This document shows positions 6,652-62,105 of a stretch of 64,000 nucleotides of DNA, piece by piece; the first letter of the stretch is position 1, and the number at the start of each line of letters is the position of its first letter. The notes beneath the pieces were generated by a model. The model was not told the DNA's origin. It searched no databases and was given only the letters and a program-made list of their open reading frames with translations. Where the stretch lies: the NCBI GenBank assembly GCA_022710715.1, contig JAKLGJ010000001.1, forward strand, positions 554,041 to 618,040, in the 5' to 3' direction. The translations under genes and the position numbers were made by a program. This DNA is from Candidatus Omnitrophota bacterium (lineage in GTDB: Bacteria > Omnitrophota > Gorgyraeia > Gygaellales > Profunditerraquicolaceae).

Positions 6652-6679
6652 CGACTCCTCCTTGGTTTACGGGAACCGT

Positions 6680-6722
6680 AAAATAAAAAAACCGGATCGC
6701 CTTTTCTTTTTCGGCAACCCGG
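6680..6722 (-). terminator. terminator-like hairpin plus U-tract inside the 5' leader, 28 nt upstream of the 400-aa gene ATG (attenuator candidate)
   Basis: Minus-strand RNA CCGGGUUGCC-GAAAAAGAAAAG-GCGAUCCGG (8/10-bp stem) followed by UUUUUUUAUUUU. It lies downstream of the predicted promoter and directly before the RBS. Confidence 0.4.
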
Positions 6723-6863
6723 ATATAGTTCGGAATTCAAAACTATTTTACCGTGGCTTTCCTGGCCTCACCCCTTCGGTCCGTCTTTATCGATGCCTCT
6801 CCCCCCAAGGTTCGGCTTTATCGATAAGAATCGAGTATTACTGATTTAAATATGTGTGATTTA

Positions 6864-6945: not shown

Positions 6946-7287
6946 CTATTGGAAGGAAGGAAGCTCTACTTTGATCTTACCTTGTTCTTCGGGGTTGGAA
7001 ACGACATAGCTGATACTGGAATTCAAATAGGATGACCATTTGTCATTTCGCCCCCTGCGCAGCGGGCCTAACGCGGATTTATCCTGATCGAGACGTTCAT
7101 TCGTTTTGTTGAAAACCATCGAGCGGTAATACACCTGTCCGATAGTCAGGCTGTGCAGGAACGCATTATTCCGGGCGGCAGCCTTAATGTCGTATTCCAG
7201 CAAAGCCGAGACGTTGGTGATAGACATGAAGAATGCCGTGAGCAGCGAAATAATGATGATGAGAGCACTGACTACCAGTCCGAACAT
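6946..7287 (-). CDS. small membrane-anchored protein, last gene of the pseudopilin cluster
   Basis: 113 aa with an N-terminal hydrophobic helix (FGLVVSALIIIISLLTAFF) but no G-F-T-L-I-E prepilin motif. 3-nt gap to the upstream prepilin-like gene. Confidence 0.5.
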   Translation of the reverse strand: MFGLVVSALIIIISLLTAFFMSITNVSALLEYDIKAAARNNAFLHSLTIGQVYYRSMVFNKTNERLDQDKSALGPLRRGRNDKWSSYLNSSISYVVSNPEEQGKIKVELPSFQ

Positions 7288-7290
7288 GGA

Positions 7291-7956
7291 TTACCGCCTT
7301 TTAACGACGTCGATGAACCAGAACCTGACTCCCTGGATCTTTTCCACCGTGGAAGAAACCCCGAACAGATTCTTGCGTTTGCTGTGAGTGGTTACATGCA
7401 CTTTAAAGAAATTCGGGCTCATCGGTTCCTCGGAACTGCCATCGACGGCAGGGGTGAACCGGAAAACGACATCCGCCTGGTATTTTCCTTCGATCAGGAC
7501 TCGTTCGGTGCCGGTATCGACGTTCCGGATCATCAGTGCGCCGCGCAGACCGTCCGGGCATCTCTGGCCTGACGGGCATTTGATGTAATATTCATACCAG
7601 ATATCGTCGCTATTCTCCTCGGGGGTTATGTTGAAGATGTTGCCCTGTCCGCGGAATTTGAAGTTATGCAGCTCTTCCGGTTCGTAACCCGAGAAACTGG
7701 TTTCGTTGTCGATCTCCACCGCGCTGGTGCAACGCAGACTGATGTCCTGCAAGGTGTTGCTGATCTGGGTATGCATGTTAAAACGTTCCATATACAAGCT
7801 TACCTGATGCGCGGTGTGCATGGTCATCCAGTAGATCGCCATGGCGACGGACGGCAGCAGGATCAGCGCGATGAGCATTTCGATCAGACTGAAAGCTTTA
7901 GCCGCTTTTTTACTGCGCGGCCCCGGTTGTGAAAGTCGTTTCTTCTCGTCGATCAT
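7291..7956 (-). CDS. prepilin-type N-terminal cleavage/methylation domain protein (minor pilin / pseudopilin-like)
   Basis: 221 aa. A 21-aa basic leader is followed by AFSLIEMLIALILL, a type IV pilin class III signal with Ala rather than Gly at -1 and Glu at +5. Confidence 0.65.
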   Translation of the reverse strand: MIDEKKRLSQPGPRSKKAAKAFSLIEMLIALILLPSVAMAIYWMTMHTAHQVSLYMERFNMHTQISNTLQDISLRCTSAVEIDNETSFSGYEPEELHNFKFRGQGNIFNITPEENSDDIWYEYYIKCPSGQRCPDGLRGALMIRNVDTGTERVLIEGKYQADVVFRFTPAVDGSSEEPMSPNFFKVHVTTHSKRKNLFGVSSTVEKIQGVRFWFIDVVKRR

Positions 7957-7957
7957 G

Positions 7958-8851
7958 TCAGCGGCTTGCCTCGGTGGCGAAAACGGTCATATCGAGATCC
8001 CGCAGGTAAAAGGTGTTTTTTTCACCGTGCCTGAACCAGCGCAGCTCTATGGTATGCTTCTGTTCCGGCTTGACGTTGGGAATAGTGATCTTCTGGCAGT
8101 TGATGGGCTGCGATTGTATCGGGGCCCATCCGCCGTATTCGGTCAGCCCGTAAGGGACTTCGTCGAACAAAAGCAGCGTATGAATCGCATCCGTGGGAGG
8201 TATGCCCTCCAGCGCTTCCGGATAAACGGAAACGCAATAATACACCTGAATGTCTTTTTCCACCGCGTATTCGACTTCGATCTTGCTGCGGGGAACAACA
8301 TGTTGCCAGCCGGGATGCCGGGGGTACTGGTACTCCGTCATCGGATCATCCGAAGCGGGGTAGTTAGCGACCTTGCAGGCGGCCGAAGGCGGGTACGGAC
8401 AGTGATAACTCTGCCGGCTTAGATGCACTTCAGGATAGGGATACATGGCGGTCAGGCGTAACGCGCGCTGGCCGGGGCTCTGCCCTTCCATGGCAACCCG
8501 GTCGTACCAGGCAGTCACGGTGATATTCTTATAGGGGATCTTGCGAAAATCGGGAGTATTCTTTCCCTGCAGCATCCGGGTCTCTTCGGGTGACACGGAA
8601 ATATTCCAGAAAGTTTTCAACCCGTCGATCCAGGACTGTTCCCCTGTTTCATTGCGCACGTAATCATACCCTCGCGCCAGAGTGCGTTCCATCTGGGTCT
8701 GCGCAACGCTCATGGCCCGGGAATCCAGTTCTTTGTTCTTGAGCATCTGAAAGCCGCCGCTCAAAGATACCACGATGATCCCGGAGATGATCACGGTGAT
8801 CACCACGGTTACCAGGAGTTCCACGTAGGTAAGACCCGTTCTGGTTCGCAT
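7958..8851 (-). CDS. prepilin-type N-terminal cleavage/methylation domain protein (pseudopilin-like, PilW/GspK-sized)
   Basis: 297 aa. MRTRTG|LTYVELLVTVVITVII has Gly at -1, Glu at +5 and a hydrophobic helix. The gene ends 1 nt before the next start. Confidence 0.7.
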   Translation of the reverse strand: MRTRTGLTYVELLVTVVITVIISGIIVVSLSGGFQMLKNKELDSRAMSVAQTQMERTLARGYDYVRNETGEQSWIDGLKTFWNISVSPEETRMLQGKNTPDFRKIPYKNITVTAWYDRVAMEGQSPGQRALRLTAMYPYPEVHLSRQSYHCPYPPSAACKVANYPASDDPMTEYQYPRHPGWQHVVPRSKIEVEYAVEKDIQVYYCVSVYPEALEGIPPTDAIHTLLLFDEVPYGLTEYGGWAPIQSQPINCQKITIPNVKPEQKHTIELRWFRHGEKNTFYLRDLDMTVFATEASR

Positions 8852-8852
8852 A

Positions 8853-9683
8853 TTAGAGTTCTCGGTCCAGCGGCATAAGGGTAATGGTCATCTGCCGGCT
8901 GTTGGCCGGGCTGAAGACCGTCAGCGGCGAATCGTTTTTCCAGTAGATCTCGATAATCAGGCTTGCGGGAAGTTCGCCGTTGTAATCATCGGGCATGATC
9001 AATGCGCTGCCCGTCATTACCGGTTCGCAGGGCGGAGAAGGCGGCGGAGGCGGCGTAGATACATGGGTCCTTTCCTCTCCCGGCGGCATCGAAATCTTGG
9101 CTTCTCCCTTTGGGTTCTTCATATCGGAGTTGACGATACAGCGGGAAATCACCGAATATCCCTCGGGAAAAGCCTGGATCGACGTGCCGTACCAGGCCCC
9201 TTCGCAGAGTTTATTCTCGATCTCCATCGCCGCCGGAGAATTGCCGAATACCTCCATTGTCCAGGTTACGATGACCTTGGCTGTTTTGCGGTATTCTTTA
9301 GGGATAGCAAGCTTATATTTGAATTCTTCCACCGGCACGAAATCCGCTTCCGATTCTTGAGCGGCTTTGCCGGAAAATTTGCTCTTGAGATGGATCGGCG
9401 CAAGGCTCAACCCGTCCGTGGCCGTGCCGTTTTCGACTTTTCCTTCGTGTTTGGCAGCGAGGTATTCCTCGCATTCAGGCTGTGTTCCGGCCTCAAAACT
9501 TTTGAAATGAGGATAACGCGCTTCGTCAAGTTCGATCCGGGATTTACCGGTGATCTCCTTGACCTGCGGGGTAAGATTTGCGGTCATTTGAGCGGTATCC
9601 TTGGCCAGGGCCGTCCCGCTTACGAGCAACCACAACGATAAGAACACACCGACTCCCACTGCGCTTCTGTTCGATTGTTTCAT
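8853..9683 (-). CDS. secreted hypothetical protein (signal peptide; PPPPPSPP linker)
   Basis: 276 aa. Signal peptide MKQSNRSAVGVGVFLSLWLLVSGTALA. No recognisable domain. Tightly linked within the pseudopilin cluster. Confidence 0.55.
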   Translation of the reverse strand: MKQSNRSAVGVGVFLSLWLLVSGTALAKDTAQMTANLTPQVKEITGKSRIELDEARYPHFKSFEAGTQPECEEYLAAKHEGKVENGTATDGLSLAPIHLKSKFSGKAAQESEADFVPVEEFKYKLAIPKEYRKTAKVIVTWTMEVFGNSPAAMEIENKLCEGAWYGTSIQAFPEGYSVISRCIVNSDMKNPKGEAKISMPPGEERTHVSTPPPPPSPPCEPVMTGSALIMPDDYNGELPASLIIEIYWKNDSPLTVFSPANSRQMTITLMPLDREL

Positions 9684-9695
9684 TGTTTCCTCCTT

Positions 9696-11054
9696 TTATT
9701 CCTTGCCGGATGGAGTGACGTCATGCCGCTGGGCACGGTAAATTTTCAATTCGACGCCCTTCAACCATACCGATAATTCGGCTTTCTTCTGGTCATCGTC
9801 GAACATGGGAATGAAATAGCAGAGTTCGACAGTATATGTTTTGAACGGCTCAAGTCCGCCGTTTTCGGGTTTCTCGTCGAAATAAGCCGCAGCTTCGATA
9901 GAGCAGTTGCCCCGGAAGGAACGCTGATGATGCGAGCTGTAAGCCTTGGTCTGGCCGCTGGGATCGATGATCCTGACCATCGAGAAGAATTGCGGCGGGT
10001 CTATGGACGGATTATCTTCGGCATACGTGCTGACCGGGGTGATGGTTTCCACGTTGATCGACCAGATCACGCCGATAGCTTCGTTTTCGCGGGCGCTGAA
10101 CATGAATTTCATGCTTTTACCGGCCGGAAAACCGTCAATATCGTCGATGGGCAGATAGTCTTTATCCGTCAAGCCCAGGATCCACTGGGTGTAGGCTTCT
10201 TCCACAAGCTTGCACTCTTCCGGGCTGGGTGCTGTCCGGCACGGGCTGTTCGCGCTTACCAGTGTATCGCAGGCAGATTCTTTGCAGGGAGGATTGCTGC
10301 CGGTAAACAGCGGTTCCCGGCAGCAGTTATAATCGCGCACGCATTTTTCCCATCCTTTTACGTCGCTGGAGCAGCGCGCGGCGCAGGATTTGAAATCGAC
10401 GGTCGGCACGTATTTGTAGCAGAAGTTCGGAGAGTTGTTGCATTTCGCTCTGTCGGCCTGCTGGGAATCGTCGTAAAATTCGATACTTCTGGAACAACTG
10501 CGGATATCCGGGTTGTTCGGCGTGCAGAACCGCCTGGGGGCGTATCCTCTGCGGTCGCAATACCAGATCGTGGAATCGGAGGGATCGACTTTGCAATCGC
10601 CCTCCGGTTGAAAAGCCGGGCAGCCATCCTCGTAACAGTTGAACTGGCCGCCGCTGCAGGCGGGATTGCAATTATCGTTTACGTCGATAGGCGAACATTC
10701 GCTGGGACGGAAAGGTATCTGTTTGGGCGTGCAGTCAAAAGAGTAACATTTTTTGTGCGGCGTGCCGGCGCTGTCGTATTCCAGGCAGGTGTCTTCCGGA
10801 CACCGGAGGCGCAATTCGTTGCATTTCCTGCAGGCTTTCCTTTTCACGAGTATCTCGGAGCCGGCAAAATCCGAATCCTGCAGCTGTAAATGCAAACCGC
10901 GGGCTACAGCGGAATTGATCGCGAAATCCTTGGGAAGATAATTGATCACGCGTTTGCCGCTATCTTCCGCGGTTCCGGCTAACGGCAAAAAAAAGACCAT
11001 GGCCACAGCAAGGCACATGGTGAAAATAACCGGTTGAGTGCGCAATTGTCCCAT
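9696..11054 (-). CDS. cysteine-rich secreted protein (putative adhesin / filament-tip protein), novel
   Basis: 452 aa. Signal peptide, then a roughly 230-aa region with about 45 Cys in irregular CxC / CxxC / Cx(n)C spacing, then a Cys-poor ~150-aa C-terminal domain. I recognise no catalytic motif. Confidence 0.6.
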   Translation of the reverse strand: MGQLRTQPVIFTMCLAVAMVFFLPLAGTAEDSGKRVINYLPKDFAINSAVARGLHLQLQDSDFAGSEILVKRKACRKCNELRLRCPEDTCLEYDSAGTPHKKCYSFDCTPKQIPFRPSECSPIDVNDNCNPACSGGQFNCYEDGCPAFQPEGDCKVDPSDSTIWYCDRRGYAPRRFCTPNNPDIRSCSRSIEFYDDSQQADRAKCNNSPNFCYKYVPTVDFKSCAARCSSDVKGWEKCVRDYNCCREPLFTGSNPPCKESACDTLVSANSPCRTAPSPEECKLVEEAYTQWILGLTDKDYLPIDDIDGFPAGKSMKFMFSARENEAIGVIWSINVETITPVSTYAEDNPSIDPPQFFSMVRIIDPSGQTKAYSSHHQRSFRGNCSIEAAAYFDEKPENGGLEPFKTYTVELCYFIPMFDDDQKKAELSVWLKGVELKIYRAQRHDVTPSGKE

Positions 11055-11103
11055 ACTGAAAATATAGCATATTTTTCAGTAATTACAACAAAAAGTCGCG
11101 AAA

Positions 11104-11484
11104 TCAATACCCTTTAAGGGTTTCTTTGCGTACGTGATAGTTGATGGTATCGCAGAGATTTTTCCGGTCGCGTTCCTCTATTTCCTGAAATGCCACTCTG
11201 GTTTCATAGATAGAATCCGGAGTGACTTCCTGGCAGGCAAGCACCCTGCCTTTCACAAACACCGGTTGGGCGGTTATGGGAAGACGGATGTGCAAACCGA
11301 AAGCCGTGTCAGGTTCATACGGCCTGCTGGTGGTAAAACGGATCCCGCCCATTCCTATATCCCGGGTCTGGGAAACGTCGGTAATAACGAACTGGGTATT
11401 CTCAACCATTCCGTAGGAAACCAGAAAACGGGCATGGGCGCGGGGAAAGCTGCGTTTATCGGTGTGGGAAGTCTGTTGCTCCAT
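11104..11484 (-). CDS. PilZ-like c-di-GMP receptor domain protein
   Basis: 126 aa. Contains RSFPR (RxxxR) and, about 25 aa later, DIGMGGIRF (a D-x-S/G-x-G-G variant) in the spacing typical of PilZ domains. Confidence 0.55.
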   Translation of the reverse strand: MEQQTSHTDKRSFPRAHARFLVSYGMVENTQFVITDVSQTRDIGMGGIRFTTSRPYEPDTAFGLHIRLPITAQPVFVKGRVLACQEVTPDSIYETRVAFQEIEERDRKNLCDTINYHVRKETLKGY

Positions 11485-11507: not shown

Positions 11508-11990
11508 CTAATTCTGCGAATAATACCTGTTGATGGTTTTGACTATTTCCTTGTTCGTGGCGATAAAAGGCATAACGTTCAGATCGGAAAAATACCGCAA
11601 TTCTTCGAATGCGCGGTGATTGAGAGGATTAGCCGCTGCCACCGTCAGATTCCGGCCGTATACATCGACCGGCATCAGGTGATATTTCCGGCAGAACCAT
11701 TCCGGCACCAGCGCCACAACGTCGGGATTCAGCTGATAATGCTCTAACGGCAGGTACGGAACGCTGTACTGCGCGGTAAACGCCTGGATAATATCTTCTT
11801 CACTGGCCAGTTCAAGGCTCAACAGGATCTCGCCGAAAAAGTTATGGCCGTTCTGCGACAGTTCACCGCTGATCGCCAGGACCTTCTCCAGCTGAACCTC
11901 GTTGAGGATCCCCCGTTCCAGCAGGATCTCGCCCATGCGTTTCGCGGTAAGACGTTTCTTGAGATGGATCGGATGATCGGGTTTAACCAT
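11508..11990 (-). CDS. stand-alone GspE/MshE N-terminal (MshEN-like) domain protein with c-di-GMP-binding motifs
   Basis: 160 aa after moving the start to MVKPDHP... (ATG at 11990, RBS GAGGAG). RMGEILLERGILNEVQLEKVLAISGELSQ fits the MshEN motif R(L/M)GxxLLxxGxLxxxQLxxAL..Q. A second degenerate copy is FFGEILLSLELASEEDIIQAFTAQ. There is no ATPase domain. Confidence 0.65.
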   Translation of the reverse strand: MVKPDHPIHLKKRLTAKRMGEILLERGILNEVQLEKVLAISGELSQNGHNFFGEILLSLELASEEDIIQAFTAQYSVPYLPLEHYQLNPDVVALVPEWFCRKYHLMPVDVYGRNLTVAAANPLNHRAFEELRYFSDLNVMPFIATNKEIVKTINRYYSQN

Positions 11991-12003
11991 GAGTCTCCTC
12001 TCA

Positions 12004-12056
12004 ACAAAAAAACCACGGTCTCTTAAAAACCGGTTACCCGGTTCAAGATTCCGTGG
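12004..12056 (-). terminator. terminator-like hairpin plus U7, 14 nt upstream of the MshEN-like gene ATG (UvrD terminator and/or leader attenuator)
   Basis: Minus-strand RNA CCACGG...CCGGGUAACCGG...CCGUGG followed by UUUUUUUGUUG. It lies between a predicted promoter and the RBS. Confidence 0.4.
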
Positions 12057-12071
12057 CTGTAGGTTGTAAGA

Positions 12072-12100
12072 ACTATAGCATACGAACGCGCACATTTCAA
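12072..12100 (-). promoter_or_regulatory. predicted sigma70 promoter of the pseudopilin/c-di-GMP receptor cluster (TTGAAA-17-TATAGT)
   Basis: Minus strand reads TTGAAAtgtgcgcgttcgtatgcTATAGT, immediately after the UvrD stop. Confidence 0.3.
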
Positions 12101-12118
12101 GCCGGAGAGAAAATTTTT

Positions 12119-14065
12119 TCAGATCACGTCGTAATCGAGCCGGACTTCCTGATCGAGCTTGGAAAGGACCTGGTGGGAATCGAGGAAACGCGAAACTTTG
12201 TTGAACTGGCTTAAGCCCATGCCGGTATTCTCATGATGCACGGATAGAAAAAGCCTGGTTTTCGCCCGGGTGAGCGCCACGTAAAAAAGCCGCTGTTCCT
12301 CTTCTATACTGGAGTCGTCATTCAAAGCAAAGCTGACCGGCAGCACTCCGTCGATCAGTCCGATCAGGAACACGCATTCCCATTCCAGCCCCTTGGCGGA
12401 ATGAATCGTCGACAAGGTCACGGGTTTTTCTTCATCGGGCAGGCTTGCCTGCGCCTGCGCCACTCCCCGGTCCGGAGGCTCCAGGGCGAAGTCGGCCAGG
12501 AAATCGCCGAGCGAGTCGTAACGCTGGGCGATTTGTTTGATCGCCTCGAAATCGTTGATGCGCTGGTTCCAGTCGTCGAATTTGTTCTTGAGTATCGGCA
12601 GATAATAGTCGATCAGCGTTTCCAGCTTGTCCGCGGTCCTGACCTGCGCATCTGAAAGTTTTTCCAGGGTGACGACCAGCCGCGCGATATCGCGGGCGAA
12701 TTTATACTGTCTGGTCTCTTCGGGCAGCACGGAGCTCACCGCCCGGTTCAGATCGCCGGCAGCGTTGATCTTGTCCACGATCTTGCTGGCGGTTTTCGGG
12801 CCGATGCCTTCGATCAACTGCAGCATGCGCGCCCAGGAGAGCTCGTCTTTATAATTGGCGACGATCTTCAAATGCGCCAGAACGTCTTTTACATGAGCGG
12901 TTTCATAGAATTTCATGCCCCCGTACACCTGGAAGGGGATGCTGCGGCGGCTTAATTCCAGTTGTAACGGGATAGACAGGTACGCGGAGCGGAAGAGCAC
13001 CGCCTGATGGGAAAATGCCAGGCCTTCGCTGCGCAGCTGGAGCATCTTGTCCGCGATCCATTCCGCTTCCGAAGAACTGTCCTGAAAAAATGACAACTGG
13101 GGTTTCTCCCCCTCCGTCCCTTTGGCGGAGAAAAGCTCTTTTTTGTACTTTGAGGTCATATTGTTGAGCACGGCATTAGCCACTTCCAGGATCGCCTGGC
13201 TGCTGCGGTAATTAGCCTCCAGCTTGAATACTTTGCATCCGGCGAAACGCTGCGGGAACTCCATGATGTTCTCGTGCGTGGCGCCCCGGAAGCCGTAAAT
13301 GCTCTGCGCGTCGTCACCGACGACCATGCAGTTGCGGAATTTCTGCGCCAGCAGAAAGGTGATATCGGCCTGCAGCCGGTTGGTGTCCTGGTATTCGTCA
13401 ACCATGATGTAACGGAATTTTTCCGACAGCCCCTCGCGGATGTTTTCGTTCCGGGTCAATAACAGCCGCAGGTAGATCAGGAGGTCGTCGTAATCGAAAT
13501 AATTCTTTTCCATCTTGTAGCGCGCGTAGGCCGCCTTGATCTTTTCCATTTCCGGCACATATTCACAAAAATGCGGATATTCCTTCTCCACTACCTGGTC
13601 CAGAGAAAGGCTTTTATTAACCGACATGGAGAGTATCTTGCGCAGGGTGTCTTTGCGCGGGAAACGCTTGCTCTTTTCGTTAAGCCCGAGTTTACCCAGA
13701 CAGAGATGAATGGCGTCTTCGGCGTCCGATTCATCGATGATCATGAAGGAATCGAATCCGATGTGCCGGGAATGCTTCTTGAGCACCTGATAGGCAAACG
13801 AATGGAAGGTCCCTCCTTCCACGTAACTGCAGCGGATGTCGTTGCGCGAAGCCCGGGCGAGCATTTGCTGCGCCGCTTTGCGGGTAAAGGTCAGAAGCAG
13901 TATGGCGTGCGGGGGGATATTCTGCTGGACCATATGCAGCACGCGGTATTCGATCACTCTCGTTTTGCCGGATCCGGCGCCGGCGATAACCAGCACCGGT
14001 CCTTCGATGGTCTGCACTACCTGTAATTGTGACGGGTTAAGTTGTTGCGTTATATCAATGGTCAT
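12119..14065 (-). CDS. ATP-dependent DNA helicase, UvrD/PcrA/Rep (SF1) family
   Basis: 648 aa. Walker A GAGSGKTRV, motif II VDEYQDTN, motif VI VALTRAK. Confidence 0.85.
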   Translation of the reverse strand: MTIDITQQLNPSQLQVVQTIEGPVLVIAGAGSGKTRVIEYRVLHMVQQNIPPHAILLLTFTRKAAQQMLARASRNDIRCSYVEGGTFHSFAYQVLKKHSRHIGFDSFMIIDESDAEDAIHLCLGKLGLNEKSKRFPRKDTLRKILSMSVNKSLSLDQVVEKEYPHFCEYVPEMEKIKAAYARYKMEKNYFDYDDLLIYLRLLLTRNENIREGLSEKFRYIMVDEYQDTNRLQADITFLLAQKFRNCMVVGDDAQSIYGFRGATHENIMEFPQRFAGCKVFKLEANYRSSQAILEVANAVLNNMTSKYKKELFSAKGTEGEKPQLSFFQDSSSEAEWIADKMLQLRSEGLAFSHQAVLFRSAYLSIPLQLELSRRSIPFQVYGGMKFYETAHVKDVLAHLKIVANYKDELSWARMLQLIEGIGPKTASKIVDKINAAGDLNRAVSSVLPEETRQYKFARDIARLVVTLEKLSDAQVRTADKLETLIDYYLPILKNKFDDWNQRINDFEAIKQIAQRYDSLGDFLADFALEPPDRGVAQAQASLPDEEKPVTLSTIHSAKGLEWECVFLIGLIDGVLPVSFALNDDSSIEEEQRLFYVALTRAKTRLFLSVHHENTGMGLSQFNKVSRFLDSHQVLSKLDQEVRLDYDVI

Positions 14066-23128: not shown

Positions 23129-23178
23129 TACGACACCTCCTTATGGTTGAGTATGTGTTTGGGATTGGTTTACCGTGG

Positions 23179-23205
23179 TTAGCAATCTTACCATCAGAGT
23201 GCTAA
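23179..23205. promoter_or_regulatory. CIRCE operator (HrcA binding site)
   Basis: TTAGCAATC-N9-GAGTGCTAA against consensus TTAGCACTC-N9-GAGTGCTAA. It lies between the -10 and the groES start. Confidence 0.8.
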
Positions 23206-23232
23206 TTATAGTGAAATTGCGCGGATTGTCAA
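23205..23232 (-). promoter_or_regulatory. groESL sigma70 promoter (TTGACA-16-TATAAT)
   Basis: Minus strand reads TTGACAatccgcgcaatttcacTATAAT. The -10 abuts the CIRCE left arm. Confidence 0.65.
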
Positions 23233-23315: not shown

Positions 23316-23933
23316 TTACTTGTTTTTAAAACCGTTCTCGGGATCCCAGGTATGCCCTTGATCATGATTGCCGAAAGGCGTGCTGGTATCGCCGCAGTCC
23401 GTACAAGAGGTATCCGATCCTCCGGAGCCGCCGCCTTCGGTATTGCCCCCGAATGGACCATAACCACCCCGTGGTTCATCGGTGAACGTGAACGGCCGGG
23501 CAGGCAGTATTGTTGCGCCTGTCGGTCTGGCACTTTCATAGGTCAGGTCCGGGACGTTGCCCGGATTGATGTACGTTGAACGCGTGCCGCGGTCAGGGGT
23601 AACTATTTCGTAGGTTGAATCCGGCACATTGCCCGGATTGCTGTAGGTTGAACGCATGCCGCGGTCAGGGGTAGCTATTTCGTAGGTCGAATCCGGAACG
23701 TTGCCCGGATTGACGGAAGGCCGTATGCCGTTATTCGGGGTGGCCGTTTCATAGGTTGAATCCGGCACATTGCCCGGATTATGGAAACTCCTGCCGGAAA
23801 AAGAGGGCATAGTGTTTGAGTACGGAGAACCTTCGAATGTATCCCTTTCGGCCAGAGCATCGCTGATAACCGTCAGACAACAGGCCAGCGTTGCACTGAC
23901 TGCGATACCCAACCACGCCCGCACTTTGATCAT
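23316..23933 (-). CDS. secreted tandem-repeat protein (4 x NPGNVPDSTYE-type repeats, Gly/Ser/Thr-rich C-terminus)
   Basis: 205 aa after moving the start to MIKVRAWLGIAVSATLACCLTVISDALA (signal peptide; ATG at 23933 preceded by AAAGGAGG). Repeats begin at aa 52, 75, 99 and 123. Confidence 0.6.
   Translation of the reverse strand: MIKVRAWLGIAVSATLACCLTVISDALAERDTFEGSPYSNTMPSFSGRSFHNPGNVPDSTYETATPNNGIRPSVNPGNVPDSTYEIATPDRGMRSTYSNPGNVPDSTYEIVTPDRGTRSTYINPGNVPDLTYESARPTGATILPARPFTFTDEPRGGYGPFGGNTEGGGSGGSDTSCTDCGDTSTPFGNHDQGHTWDPENGFKNK
23500..23780. repeat. four tandem DNA repeats of about 69-72 bp inside the repeat-protein CDS
   Basis: Iterated ...ggcacattgcccggattg(c/a)tgta(g/c)gttgaacgc(g/a)tgccgcggtcaggggta(a/g)ctatttcgtaggt(t/c)gaatcc... 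with a few substitutions per copy. Confidence 0.6.
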
Positions 23934-23958
23934 GGAGACCTCCTTTAAACAGCCGGCT

Positions 23959-24226
23959 AAAAGAAAAAACCCTAAGGACACCATTTCCTTAGGGTTGTAC
24001 TCGATGGTATGCCTTTGGTAGCGCAGCCTTCCACAACACATCCGATCGAGCACCTGGCGCAATCAGAATGTGCGCCAGTGCACTGCGGGTGCAGTGGAAC
24101 TGTCACTTTGCTTCCGGGGCGCTTGCGCGTTACCCGGAAGTCCCGCCTGTTGATCTTGCGTATCTTTTCGCGGGACGTCCCCCGATCACTCGGGGTTTGC
24201 CTTTTTCAACGGGTTTCTACACTGAC
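23959..24226 (-). ncRNA. candidate structured 5' leader or small RNA (about 270 nt) ending in an intrinsic terminator 25 nt before the repeat-protein ATG. Its 5' part resembles a c-di-GMP-I (GEMM) aptamer half
   Basis: Predicted promoter TTGAAT-16-TATACT at 24233-24260 (minus strand). RNA begins ...GUUGAAAAAGGCAAACC-CCGA-GUGA-UCGG-GGGACG (compare Vc2 GGCAAACC-AUUC-GAAA-GAGU-GGGACG). It ends in CCCUAAGG-AAAUGGUGU-CCUUAGGG-UUUUUUCUUUU at 23959-23994. Confidence 0.3.
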
Positions 24227-29077: not shown

Positions 29078-30124
29078 TTACAACTGTTTGAATTCTTCCA
29101 CGTTCTTAGCCTTGGACATGGCCACTTCCAGCGTGATCAATCCCTTATTATATAATTCTTTGAGCGTCTTATCCATGGTCTTCATCCCGTACTGGCTGCC
29201 GGTTTGCATGATCGTGGGGATCTGCTCGATTTCCTGCTCGCGGACAAGGTTGCGGATGGCCGGCGTGGCGACCAGGGTTTCGGTGACCAGACAGCGGCCG
29301 GTTCCCGACTGATGCGGGACCAGGAGTTGCGATACGATGCCCTGCAAACAGTCTGCCAGCTGCAGGCGGACCTGCTGCTGTTGATGAGGCGGAAAAACGT
29401 CGATGATTCTCTCGATGGTCTGCGGCGCATCCGGAGTATGCAGCGTGGCCAGTACGAGATGGCCGGTTTCCGCTGCGGTCAGCGTGGTTGAAATGGTTTC
29501 CAGATCGCGCATTTCCCCTACGATAATGACGTTGGGATCCTGGCGCAGGCAGTGGCGCAGCGCTTCGGAGAATGAATGCGTATCCGCATAGACCTCGCGT
29601 TGCTTGACAATGGCTTTCTTGTTGGTATAAATGAATTCTATAGGGTCTTCGATAGTGATGATCAATCCTTCGCGCTCCTGGTTGATCAGGTTCACTACCG
29701 CGGCCATGGTAGTCGATTTACCCACGCCGGTAGGGCCGGTGATCAGCACCAGACCGTTCGGCCTGCGGGCCAGCTCCATGACTACCGGAGGCAGCCCCAG
29801 GGATTCGATGTCGGGAATTTCGAGCGGGATGCGCCGGAAAGCCCCTTCAACCGATCCTTTCTGCTGATGCAGATTGACGCGGAAGCGGTCCAGGCAGGGC
29901 AAGGCCAGGGAAAAGTCGAGCTCCAGGTCGCGTTCGAACATTTCTTTTTGCGTGTCGGTCAACACGCTGTAAATCATCTTCTTAAGCACATCGCGGGTCA
30001 ACTTGGCCAGGTCGGTGCGCAGCAGGCGGCCGTCGATACGCAACAACGGCGGTTCGTTCTCGGTGAGATGCAGGTCGGACGCTCTTTTCTTGACGCAGAG
30101 TATCAATAGCTCATTAATATCCAT
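29078..30124 (-). CDS. pilT: type IV pilus retraction ATPase PilT
   Basis: 348 aa. Walker A GPTGVGKST, Asp box, Walker B, His box. PilT-specific AIRNLVRE near the C-terminus. Confidence 0.85.
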   Translation of the reverse strand: MDINELLILCVKKRASDLHLTENEPPLLRIDGRLLRTDLAKLTRDVLKKMIYSVLTDTQKEMFERDLELDFSLALPCLDRFRVNLHQQKGSVEGAFRRIPLEIPDIESLGLPPVVMELARRPNGLVLITGPTGVGKSTTMAAVVNLINQEREGLIITIEDPIEFIYTNKKAIVKQREVYADTHSFSEALRHCLRQDPNVIIVGEMRDLETISTTLTAAETGHLVLATLHTPDAPQTIERIIDVFPPHQQQQVRLQLADCLQGIVSQLLVPHQSGTGRCLVTETLVATPAIRNLVREQEIEQIPTIMQTGSQYGMKTMDKTLKELYNKGLITLEVAMSKAKNVEEFKQL

Positions 30125-48963: not shown

Positions 48964-51054
48964 TTAGCTGCGTTTAGCGCTTGGTGTATATCCAGAAGTA
49001 ATTTTCTCTACTATATGTGAAGGCACCTCGGCGTAAAACGAGGGCTCCATTGTATAGGATGCGCGCCCCTGGGTCAGCGAACGCATCACCGTCGCGTAGT
49101 TGAAGATTTCCGCGAGCGGGATGTCGGCCCGGATTGCGCGAACGTTCGCGCGGGGATTGATCGAAACGATTTTTGCCCGGCGGGAACTCAAATCCCCGAT
49201 TACCGCTCCCATGAATTCCTCCGGGGTGGTCACTTCCATATCCATGATCGGCTCGAGCAGGATGGATTTCGCTTTGCGCAACGCATCGCTCAATCCCAGC
49301 CCGGCCGCCATTTTAAAGGCCATTTCCGACGAATCCACGTCATGGTACGAGCCGTCGACCAGAGTGACTTTGATATCGGTGACCGGATAACCCGCCAGCA
49401 CGCCGCTCTTTGCGCCCTCGAAAACACCCTGCTTGACCGCCGGAATGTATTCCTGCGGGATGGCGCCGCCTTTAATCTTGTTTTCAAAAGTGATGCCGGT
49501 ACCGGGAGTCTCCTGCGGTTCGACTTCGAAAACAACGTGGCCGTACTGCCCGCGTCCGCCGGACTGCTGGATGAATTTACCGGAGACATTGACTTTCCTG
49601 GTGATGGTCTCTCGATAGGCGACTTCCGGAAAACCCACCTGGCACTCGACGTTGAATTCGCGCTGGATCCTGTCCACGATGATCTCAAGATGCAGCTGTC
49701 CCATGCCGGACATGATCGTCTGCCCGGTCTCGTGGTTATAGGTGACCCTGAACGAAGGATCTTCATCGAGCATCTTGTGCAATGCCAGCCCCAGTTTTTC
49801 CTGGTCGTTCTTGACCTTCGGCTCTACCGCCTGCTGGATAACCGGTTCGGGGAAGCGCATCGCTTCGATCAGGATGTGATTGCCTTCGTCGCAGATGGTA
49901 TCGCCGGTTTTTGTTTCTTTCAATCCCACCGCAGCCACGATATCGCCGGTAAAAGCCTGTTCGATGATCTCCTGGTGGTTGGCGTGCATCCGCACCAGTT
50001 TGGTTATGCGTTCCCGGGTGCGTTTCGTAGCGTTGTAAATGTATTTTCCGGAAGAGATCGATCCGGAATAAAGACGGATATAATTAATTTTACCTACGAA
50101 CGGGTCGGTGGCGACTTTAAAGCACAGAGCGCAGAACGGCGCTTTTTCAGACGGATTGATCTCTTCGAACTCCGCTGATTCCGGATTGGTGCCTTTGACC
50201 GGAGGCAGATCCAGCGGGGACGGCAGATAATCCACGACCGCGTTGAGCAAAAGCTGTATGCCTTTGTTCCGGAACGCCGATCCGCAGAATACGGGAGTGA
50301 ATTTATTGGCGATCACCGACCTGCGGATGCCCGCTTTGAGCTCCTGCGCGGTTACGGGCTTGCCGTCGATAAATTTCTCCATGATGACGTCGTCGGCTTC
50401 CGCGACCCGCTCCACCAGGATGTTGTAGTATTCTTCGACTTTTTGTTTCATATCTTCGGGGATCTCGACGAGCTCGATATCTTTTCCCATATCGTCTTTA
50501 AAGGAAGACATCTTTTTTTCGATCAGGTCGATGATACCCTTGAAATTCTCTTCTTCCCCGTACGGTAACTGCACTGCGGCGGCATTTGCGCCCAGCTTTT
50601 CGTGTATCTGCTTTATCGCTTCATAAAAGTTAGCCGCGGTGCGGTCCATCTTGTTCACGAAAGCCAGTCGCGGCACTCCGTAGCGGTCGGCCTGGCGCCA
50701 GACGGTTTCGGACTGGGGTTCGACCCCGCCGACCCCGCAAAAGACCACCACGGCTCCGTCGAGAACCTTCAGCGAGCGTTCGACTTCGACCGTAAAATCC
50801 ACGTGGCCGGGAGTATCGATCAGGTTGAAGGTGCAATCCTTCCAGTGACAGGTTGTCGCGGCGGCGGTGATCGTGATGCCGCGTTCCTGCTCCTGGACCA
50901 TCCAGTCCATGGTCGCGGCGCCGTCATGCACTTCGCCGATCTTATAGTTTTTCCCGGTGTAGAACAGGATGCGCTCCGACGTGGTAGTTTTACCGGCGTC
51001 GATGTGCGCGATGATCCCGATGTTCCGTAGTTTTTCAAGTTCGATTTTTTTCAT
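48964..51054 (-). CDS. fusA: elongation factor G
   Basis: 696 aa, [15 protein letters not shown]... Confidence 0.97.
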
Positions 51055-61577: not shown

Positions 61578-62105
61578 TTACACTTTCTCCACTTGCCAAT
61601 ACTCTAATTCGACCGGAGTCGATCGGCCGAATATCGAGATATTAACTTTGATCTTGCCTTTATCCGGATACACGTCATCAATGGTACCGTTAAAATTCAT
61701 GAACGGTCCCTCTTTTACCCGTATGGCTTCGCCCTTTTCGAAAATTATCTTCGGGCTGGGCTTGGCTTTGGTCTCCTCTGTCCTCTTGAGAATGGAATCG
61801 ACTTCGTTCGGAGGCAGCGGGGTCGGTTTCTTGCCGGAGCCGATAAAACCGGTTACGCCGGGAATACCCTTTATGAAAGAATACGCCTGATCGTTCATCT
61901 CCATTTCAACCAGAATATACCCGGGGAAAAAACGCCGTTCGGTAACTCTCTTTTTCCCGGAGCGCACTTCGGAAATCTGTTCGGTAGGAATGACGACTTT
62001 ACTGATATGCTCGGCAAATCCGCTGGCCGAGATCTTGGACTGAAGTATCGTTTTGACCCTGTCTTCAAATCCTGTTTGTGTATGAACGACGTACCAGTTT
62101 TTCAT
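61578..62105 (-). CDS. nusG: transcription termination/antitermination factor NusG
   Basis: 175 aa, [18 protein letters not shown]..., KOW domain at the C-terminus. Confidence 0.95.

Follow-up and report, generated by a model that had tools for sequence, protein, structure and literature searches.

Does the short spacer between the gene for a UvrD-like helicase and the operon behind it, in the genome of an uncultured Omnitrophota bacterium, merely end one transcript, or does it also control whether the next one is made? We examined this question in a 64,000-nucleotide (nt) stretch of Candidatus Omnitrophota bacterium assembly GCA_022710715.1 (contig JAKLGJ010000001.1, positions 554,041 to 618,040), hereafter the window, whose own coordinates are used throughout; all features of the spacer, near 12.0 kb, lie on the minus strand. 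The spacer is 128 nt long and contains, in this order, a promoter-like site, a GC-rich hairpin with a run of seven U residues (U7) and a ribosome-binding site (RBS), followed by the start codon of a gene for a stand-alone MshEN-domain protein. The analysis presented here suggests, with a rough probability of 0.45 for the two parts taken jointly, that the whole intergenic region from 12116 to 12004 is a degraded copy of an RNA element that is conserved and so far not catalogued, and that it serves as a transcriptional gate for the MshEN operon. A terminator in a leader is of a known kind; the new part is the proposed descent from an uncatalogued conserved RNA.

The element became apparent outside the window. 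A contig of the same genome (locus L084), by which the sequence was extended to a coverage of about 80 kb, contains a fourth leader with the promoter-terminator-RBS order (L084:20177-20373, with the full element at L084:20212-20308), located in front of the gene for a 937-amino-acid (aa) TPR protein about 8 kb past window position 1. The TPR leader and the 12.0 kb leader share GCCACGGAA, followed after 5-6 variable nt by AACCGG and, further downstream, by GGGU(C)AACCGGUUUUU. The pattern derived from this similarity was found at 47 places in metagenome contigs, five of them with a larger motif, and four of these five copies directly follow a homologue of p114, a 114-aa gene that also precedes the TPR leader; further p114 loci yielded four more copies. 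The resulting set comprises ten sequences, from L084 and nine foreign contigs (L092, L095, L110, L122, L126, L135, L136, L137 and L140). The gene order lepA-lepB-pgsA-plsY-p114-element is kept, and the element is absent from the more distant p114 relatives examined.

The members of this set share a distinct organization: a promoter (TTGAC(A/T)-17-TATACT) that lies 11-45 nt upstream of UCCGGU, an A/U-rich stretch, UCCGGU itself, a hairpin denoted P2, the GCCACGGA box and, after a linker about 8 nt long, a terminator of the form AACCGGA-UUGAC ... GGGUCAAU-CCGGUUUUUU. P2 consists of 6-11 base pairs (bp), varies in sequence while its pairing persists and, in most members, carries an (A/U)GGAGG loop. 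Within the box, GCCACGG is invariant (10/10) and the next A nearly so; RNAalifold pairs UCCGGU with GCC(AC)GGA, leaving AC as a bulge. In the model-based alignment, seven pairs change on both sides, a number reached in 3 of 500 shuffles; this covariation, which includes each of the four pairs at the foot of the variable hairpin, supports the structure of the family. Rfam searches returned no family for the element, neither at the gathering score nor at E up to 5, and it is absent from Rfam 15. The genes that follow it encode proteins with signal peptides, be it members of a conserved family (about 460 aa), a protein of 1217 aa or the TPR protein. A leader peptide was considered for this family and rejected, as reading frames and stop codons, inspected by eye, are not conserved across the members. 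In one of the relatives, a PilZ gene (L137:2873-3154) is located between p114 and the element; PilZ is thereby linked to the locus, much like the PilZ gene behind the copy at 12.0 kb. One more distant Omnitrophota genome (L138 and L139, 2440-2500) has GCCACGG in the loop of a UCCCC/GGGGA hairpin that is followed by an CCGGGUUGCC/GGCAACCCGG hairpin; these hairpins lie just upstream of p114, not after it.

The 12.0 kb spacer was compared with the family using two covariance models: R1, which describes the full element, and R2, which was built from the nine foreign sequences only and spans the 5' flank to AACCGGA without the terminator; the E-values are rough because the calibration was shortened. 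The spacer ranks first in the window with R1, at 26.6 bits, and first in the 128 kb searched with R2 (Table 1). The motif was initially spotted by eye, and the independent evidence consists of the R2 result and the conservation of the same positions in foreign sequences. Pairwise alignments of the spacer with each member likewise score above those of shuffled sequences (p between 0 and 0.04). What the spacer retains, UCCGG, GCCACGGA, AACCGG and CCGGUUUUU, are the invariant positions of the family. The box and the linker follow each other as GCCACGGA-AUCUUG-AACCGG (12057-12038), and the terminator pattern of the family, AACCGG...CCGGUUUU, is present as AACCGG-GUAA-CCGGUUUUU, which makes the inner mini-hairpin at 12028-12043 the counterpart of the family terminator, with the loop deleted to GUAA. 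When positions 12106-12050 are folded in isolation and without constraints, the minimum free energy structure contains the family-type helix of UCCGG with GCC(AC)GGA.

The departures from the family are equally specific. P2 is replaced by 42 nt that are not conserved, and it is inside this stretch that the promoter-like site is located. On the 3' side, the AAGAGACCGUGG-U7 extension provides a CCGUGG that pairs back on UCUU and the box, making the short terminator into a 19-bp hairpin. No counterpart was found of the promoter that the element has elsewhere upstream of UCCGGU; here UCCGGC follows the uvrD stop codon at a distance of 12 nt. Given that P2 is missing and that the score is below those of the members, the spacer is best filed as a degenerate relative rather than a full member of the family. 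Duplication of an operon was examined as its source and rejected: neither the 452-aa protein of the MshEN operon nor the 400-aa protein behind the 6.7 kb leader shows homology to the secreted 459-aa family encoded after the element in relatives. A reading made earlier from the letters of the DNA (hereafter the sequence-only reading) had taken promoter and hairpin as the unit of the leader; the site is indeed present, and the homologous element begins upstream of it, at UCCGGC (12106-12101).

The promoter-like site consists of a -35 hexamer TTGAAA (12100-12095), a 17-nt spacer that ends in TGc (12080-12078) and a -10 hexamer TATAGT (12077-12072), that is, 10 of 12 consensus positions plus the TG of an extended -10, at a spacing within the range of 16-18 nt; the predicted start is near A12065. 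When the 60 nt that separate the stop codon from the hairpin are shuffled, an equally good match arises in 0.6% of the shuffled sequences and, with TG required, in 0.04%; window-wide, there are three sites with at least 10/12 positions and TG, compared to 0.38 in shuffles. No site with at least 9/12 positions is present in the 3' end of uvrD. By its match to the consensus, the site upstream of the terminator is probably a promoter. The gap between the -10 hexamer and CCACGG measures 15 nt (TCTTACAACCTACAG), not the 20 nt claimed in the sequence-only reading, whose succession of promoter, hairpin, U7, GAGGAG and ATG 11990 is real and, by the shuffle tests, statistically unusual. GUUGA separates U7 from GAGGAG, and ACUC separates GAGGAG from AUG; the resulting interval of 18 nt between U7 and the ATG is too small for any promoter, which removes the case that the same reading had named as its own refutation, a downstream promoter located after the hairpin. 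From an ATG at 12095, the reading frame runs without a stop across the promoter-like site and the hairpin and on into MshEN, which makes an open reading frame of 195 aa (11990-12095, minus strand); no RBS precedes this codon, and the gene calls in three assemblies start at ATG 11990.

At the base of the hairpin, AGCCACGG pairs with CCGUGGUU; above this stem follow a 2x2 internal loop, an upper stem, UCUUGAACCGG/CCGGU..UUAAGA, and the GUAA loop. The 86-nt leader folds at -33 kcal/mol (z-score -5.3; 0 of 200 shuffles as good) and the hairpin alone at -24 to -27.6 kcal/mol, with a basal pair probability of 0.9998; the addition of 130 nt of upstream RNA leaves the hairpin unchanged. A stable GC-rich hairpin with a directly adjoining U tract, the hallmark of an intrinsic terminator, is thus present, and a terminator score of the d'Aubenton-Carafa type is d = 30.9, the top value among the terminators of the window. 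The plus strand has no T run after the hairpin, so that a bidirectional terminator is not indicated. From the predicted start, only about 8 nt precede the hairpin. No antiterminator was detected in cis: the best competitor, a CCACGG:CCGGG helix, has -13.0 kcal/mol versus -27.6 kcal/mol for the terminator, a difference of 14.6 kcal/mol. Nothing was found in cis that could make termination conditional, and conditional read-through at this site is an inference. An attenuator of the trp type, with a leader peptide, was rejected, given that the leader is only 75 nt long, contains neither an RBS nor a leader reading frame and has a competing fold weaker by the margin just given. A search of 301 nt (11900-12200) around the leader gave no match to any Rfam family, neither at the gathering score nor with the limit relaxed to E = 10; this applies also to the riboswitches for cyclic diguanylate (c-di-GMP), RF01051, RF03167 and RF01786.

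Table 1. Coordinates of the spacer, of the genes and leaders around it and of the model matches. Positions without a locus prefix are those of the window.
Feature	Position	Strand	Basis or score
UvrD/Rep-type helicase gene	12119..14065	-	Pfam UvrD-helicase and UvrD_C; TGA 12121-12119
A/U-rich stretch AAAAAUUUUCUC	12107..12118	-	matches the A/U-rich sequence on the element's 5' side (alignments to models R1 and R2)
Segment #1, UCCGGC	12101..12106	-	counterpart of the element's invariant UCCGGU (R2 alignment)
Sigma-70-type promoter-like site, TTGAAA-17-TGcTATAGT	12072..12100	-	consensus match
42-nt stretch replacing the P2 hairpin	12058..12099	-	insertion in the R2 alignment; not conserved
GCCACGGA box	12050..12057	-	here the 5' strand in the terminator's basal stem
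Full nested terminator hairpin, 19 bp, two internal loops	12011..12058	-	fold energy, z-score, d score
Segments #2, AACCGG, and #3, CCGGUU, around the GUAA loop	12028..12043	-	R1 alignment; pairwise alignment with the TPR leader
3' extension AAGAGACCGUGG	12013..12024	-	present in none of the ten family sequences
U7 tract of the terminator	12006..12012	-	sequence
Shine-Dalgarno GAGGAG	11995..12000	-	sequence
Gene for stand-alone MshEN-domain protein, 160 aa, with c-di-GMP binding motif; first operon gene	11508..11990	-	Pfam PF05157
Rest of the MshEN operon	6946..11484	-	library matches, N-termini
6.7 kb leader (about 205 nt), before the gene for a 400-aa secreted protein	6652-6857	-	terminator 6722-6692
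24.0 kb leader, before the gene for a repeat-containing secreted protein	23934-24226	-	z-score -5.4; terminator 23996-23968
p114 gene, same genome	L084:19802-20146		precedes the TPR leader
R2, best window match, filters off	12116-12037	-	19.1 bits, E about 0.003 (rough)
R2, next window match	50037-50067	+	11.2 bits
R2 on the TPR leader of the same genome	L084:20223-20278		14.9 bits
R2, top non-member among other loci (864 kb)	L138:2083-2117	-	16.6 bits

Upstream of the spacer is the unit dnaG-rpoD-cstA-DUF192-uvrD, with uvrD as the last gene; the 12.0 kb hairpin, which lies 62 nt after the uvrD stop codon, is the only terminator of this unit and the only one between that stop codon and ATG 11990. 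Since the terminator lies 18 nt before the MshEN start codon, all transcripts that enter the operon must read through it. The candidate role of the hairpin as the UvrD terminator, raised in the sequence-only reading, thus stands insofar as the upstream housekeeping operon has no other; the downstream promoter that this alternative called for does not follow. The MshEN protein, the start of which is placed at ATG 11990 by three independent gene calls, also matches NCBIfam NF053729 (38.6 bits, cut-off 38). It is followed, at intergenic gaps of 1 to 49 nt, by genes for a PilZ protein (11104-11484), for two secreted proteins (452 and 276 aa) without family matches, and for proteins of 297, 221 and 113 aa. 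The 221-aa protein has a prepilin-type N-terminal domain above the cut-off, and the 297-aa protein a similar prepilin-type N-terminus, with its sole matches far below the cut-off. The MshEN motif, the PilZ domain and the prepilin-type N-termini bear out the earlier description of the operon as one of c-di-GMP receptors and pseudopilins. Elsewhere in the window (29078-30124, minus strand), a gene for a PilT-like T2SSE ATPase is located between the genes for the large and small subunits of an aconitase-family enzyme.

An identical spacer is present in three other assemblies. The MshEN and 452-aa proteins have no homologues outside the species among 5.8 billion proteins, and a metagenome scan with the MshEN protein gave no matches. 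The relatives of UvrD among genome representatives show at most 60% identity and no synteny, and the other Omnitrophota uvrD loci have unrelated downstream regions. An origin as a repeat or mobile element was rejected, as no repeat family spans the 12.0 kb site, and so was a foreign island, the GC content being unremarkable.

The order of signals at 12.0 kb, promoter-like site, terminator and RBS, recurs at 6.7 and 24.0 kb but is unusual in the window: four other sites, at 5.37, 21.1, 23.25 and 62.87 kb, have a stop codon followed by a terminator, then a promoter and the gene. The sequence-only reading had noted that the three leaders carry a terminator-like structure between promoter and RBS and that the housekeeping operons do not. 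In agreement with this, the 6.7 and 24.0 kb leaders also have a terminator-like hairpin between the promoter-like site and the RBS, and the units behind four other promoters, namely two tRNA clusters, groES-groEL and a gene of the colicin V production family, have a terminator followed by a promoter. The groES promoter (23178-23232, minus strand) is a perfect TTGACA-16-TATAAT and overlaps a CIRCE-like inverted repeat, TTAGCACTC-N9-GATTGCTAA, the first bases of which are the end of the -10 hexamer.

The further step, a regulatory logic common to the three leaders of the window, finds no support. Local alignments of the three do not exceed those of shuffled sequences; CCGGGTAAC and AGCCACGG are common to the leaders only pairwise, and CCGGGT is frequent in coding sequence. 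R2 matches the 12.0 kb region but neither the 6.7 nor the 24.0 kb leader. Accordingly, a shared element exists in a different sense than proposed: the relatives of the 12.0 kb leader are found before the TPR gene outside the window and in other Omnitrophota, not in the two leaders with the same layout. The latter give sub-threshold matches to the c-di-GMP-I-GGC riboswitch (gathering score 59), with 24.4 bits for the 6.7 kb leader and 25.9 bits, at 24210-24153, for the 24.0 kb leader, which is about 290 nt long. One of the element-carrying relatives has a bona fide riboswitch of the c-di-GMP-I-GGC class (L110:3560-3638, plus strand; 64.5 bits, gathering score 59), which shows that this aptamer class exists in the lineage. 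The 6.7 kb leader also contains two 31-nt direct repeats, AUCGAUAAAG(C/A)CG(A/G)ACC..., and a AAAGCCACGG motif. In the gene behind the 24.0 kb leader (23316-23933), four tandem repeats of about 72 nt (23509-23780) encode repeats of the type NPGNVPDSTYE. The contig of locus L085 (NCBI DAOOTZ010000001.1) ends about 255 nt upstream of a CT398-like gene, by tRNA genes and the gene for the 400-aa protein; this assembly break at the edge of an accessory cluster may reflect strain variation.

We propose that the diverged element, a hairpin combined with an intrinsic terminator, would act as a transcriptional gate. Most transcripts from either source would end at about 12006, with the nested promoter giving rise to an RNA of roughly 60 nt, and expression of the MshEN operon would depend on bypass of the terminator. 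This could be brought about by a trans-acting factor that recognizes the GCCACGGA box; because the box is the 5' strand of the basal stem, binding of such a factor would keep the hairpin from closing. The logic would then be similar to that of RAT/BglG systems; alternatively, the factor might modify the polymerase, in the manner of LoaP or N.

Several observations weigh against this combination of descent and gating. The scores at 12.0 kb, 19-27 bits, are far below the 52-92 bits of clear members, and ordinary terminators reach 18-22 bits with R1, which implies that the terminator part of that model adds little specificity. The P2 hairpin with its GGAGG loop is missing from this copy. No orthologue of the spacer was found in any collection searched, and the UCCGGU:box helix of the family never varies, so that covariation cannot prove it. 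In at least three relatives (L095, L135 and L137), a second promoter (10-12/12) follows the terminator of the element, which itself has a promoter with 10-11/12 positions; the element in these three loci looks like a self-contained small RNA gene, not a leader. No candidate for the factor was found. The window has no gene for an antiterminator-type protein, only that of the housekeeping NusG (61578-62105, by secE and rplK), and p114, considered as an RNA-binding regulator, was rejected for want of a recognizable RNA-binding fold.

The homology search with p114 yielded 115 protein clusters, few of them labelled with a taxon and almost all of these named Omnitrophota. The N-terminus, MRDLLFKNLTS, is invariant; the AlphaFold model (pLDDT 86) consists of one helix and five long strands and has no fold match in the PDB (TM score at most 0.26), and the only library match is a faint one to DUF7181. 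The p114 gene has a leader of its own (L084:19635-19801), with a promoter-like TTGAAA-16-TATACT and two hairpins, CCGGAAAUAAUGGUUAUUUCCGG and GGGCCAUGG...CAUGGCCC, the second of which contains GCCAUGG, one base off the box.

The 12.0 kb leader can be compared with several known systems. In antitermination of the ribonucleic antiterminator (RAT)/terminator type (BglG/SacY/LicT), and with HutP, a protein bound to an RNA site blocks formation of the terminator hairpin. The 12.0 kb leader is similar in that a conserved RNA site, a candidate for protein binding, overlaps the 5' strand of the terminator stem; it differs in that no CAT/PRD, ANTAR or HutP gene is located nearby and the sequence is unrelated to RAT. 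At the PR'-tR' region of phage lambda, only a short abortive RNA is made unless the polymerase is modified by Q, and a long operon lies behind. Here, too, a promoter closely precedes a terminator with a long operon behind it, whereas there is no Q-like gene, the first transcribed nucleotides contain no convincing -10-like pause element, and the context is chromosomal. The GC-rich hairpin with U7, located 62 nt after a stop codon, is what an ordinary operon end would show; unlike such an end, it is preceded by a promoter-like site, adjoined by an RBS and endowed with the invariant positions of a conserved RNA. LoaP, a NusG paralogue, bypasses a terminator after a small RNA hairpin in the dfn operon of B. 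velezensis (PMC12691694). Leaders of this type resemble the present ones in the succession of promoter, conserved hairpin and intrinsic terminator before a long accessory operon, and the Omnitrophota family has its hairpin about 8 nt before the terminator; in contrast, the window encodes no NusG paralogue of the LoaP/RfaH type, there is no sequence similarity, and the 12.0 kb copy has only a degenerate form of the separate hairpin, with the conserved box lying inside the terminator stem. In C. difficile, the c-di-GMP-II riboswitch Cdi-2-4 is located upstream of pilA1 (PMC6366702). Together with GEMM-I and c-di-GMP-I-GGC (RF03167), it shares with the 12.0 kb leader a leader terminator before pilus-type genes in a c-di-GMP-related regulon; where control of pilus genes by a terminator within a c-di-GMP regulon is concerned, Cdi-2-4 is the closest precedent in function. 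Unlike these riboswitches, the 12.0 kb leader yields no covariance match, lacks the other aptamer helix and is too short for a full aptamer.

Among the rival explanations, the simplest is that the hairpin is a plain terminator of the uvrD operon, that the promoter hexamers and the likeness to the element arose by chance, and that the MshEN operon is fed by leaky read-through or by a promoter of a type outside our scan. The position of the hairpin as the sole terminator, 62 nt after the uvrD stop codon, agrees with this explanation, as do the modest model scores, the 18-22 bits that generic terminators reach with R1, the absence of P2 with GGAGG, and the unrelated downstream regions of other Omnitrophota uvrD loci. 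It is rather unlikely nonetheless: a promoter match this good has a chance probability of 0.006 (0.0004 if TG is included), the terminator-free R2 ranks the spacer first in 128 kb and above all of the 864-kb background, the matching positions are exactly the invariant ones of the family, and the four other terminators of the window come before their promoters, not after. Alternatively, the promoter could be real and the terminator an unregulated, constitutive attenuator and insulator that lowers and insulates expression, with the likeness to the element reflecting ancestry only and the read-through hairpin leaving a stabilizing 5' structure on the mRNA. The lack of an alternative structure in cis and of a regulator gene nearby would agree with such an arrangement, as would the loss of P2 and GGAGG, which suggests a degenerating copy. 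It would mean, on the other hand, that the output of a promoter placed before the window's strongest terminator is largely wasted, and it gives no reason for the family-invariant box to be kept; we consider it unlikely.

The other two explanations assign a function to the RNA itself. The spacer might be a stand-alone gene for a small RNA of about 60 nt (AACCUACA, the hairpin and a U tail) that acts in trans, with control of MshEN being secondary. A promoter and a terminator 60 nt apart constitute the anatomy of a small RNA gene, and the elements of L095, L135 and L137, with one promoter for themselves and another for the next gene, conform to it. A seed of only about 8 unpaired nt, the location of U7 18 nt before the start codon of an operon that has no other promoter, and the TPR copy of this genome, L092 and L136, in which the element is followed by the RBS without a second promoter, make this quite improbable. 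Still less probable, indeed hardly to be expected, is a riboswitch in which c-di-GMP or another small molecule controls the terminator directly. The MshEN and PilZ c-di-GMP receptors encoded downstream, the sub-threshold c-di-GMP-I-GGC matches of the 6.7 and 24.0 kb leaders, the bona fide riboswitch in L110, the resemblance of the GCCACGG...CCGGGU motif to the consensus of one c-di-GMP-I-GGC aptamer helix and the terminator-based c-di-GMP-II riboswitch of C. difficile pilA1 (PMC6366702) all point in this direction. They are opposed by the lack of any Rfam match at E up to 10 in the 301-nt search, by the mere 8 nt or so left before the hairpin if the promoter is used, by a competing CCACGG:CCGGG helix 14.6 kcal/mol less stable than the terminator, and by the fact that the conserved element itself matches no Rfam riboswitch. 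We retain the diverged element with a gating role as the preferred interpretation.

We know of no described gene regulation in Omnitrophota, which are uncultured bacteria. If the gate at 12.0 kb is conditional, it would provide a first handle on how these bacteria switch surface, pilus-like and c-di-GMP-responsive functions; if it is not, the spacer would be only an operon terminator with a nested promoter. The element itself, represented by ten sequences with covariation and conserved synteny and without an Rfam match, is a concrete candidate for a new family of cis-regulatory or small RNAs. It is conceivable, at odds clearly on the lower side, that the GCCACGGA-box element is an undescribed, phylum-specific regulatory RNA of Omnitrophota that gates surface-protein operons by conditional termination via a dedicated trans-acting factor or acts as a small RNA, and that the operon of c-di-GMP receptors and pseudopilins is subject to the same control through the 12.0 kb leader, a streamlined derivative of it.

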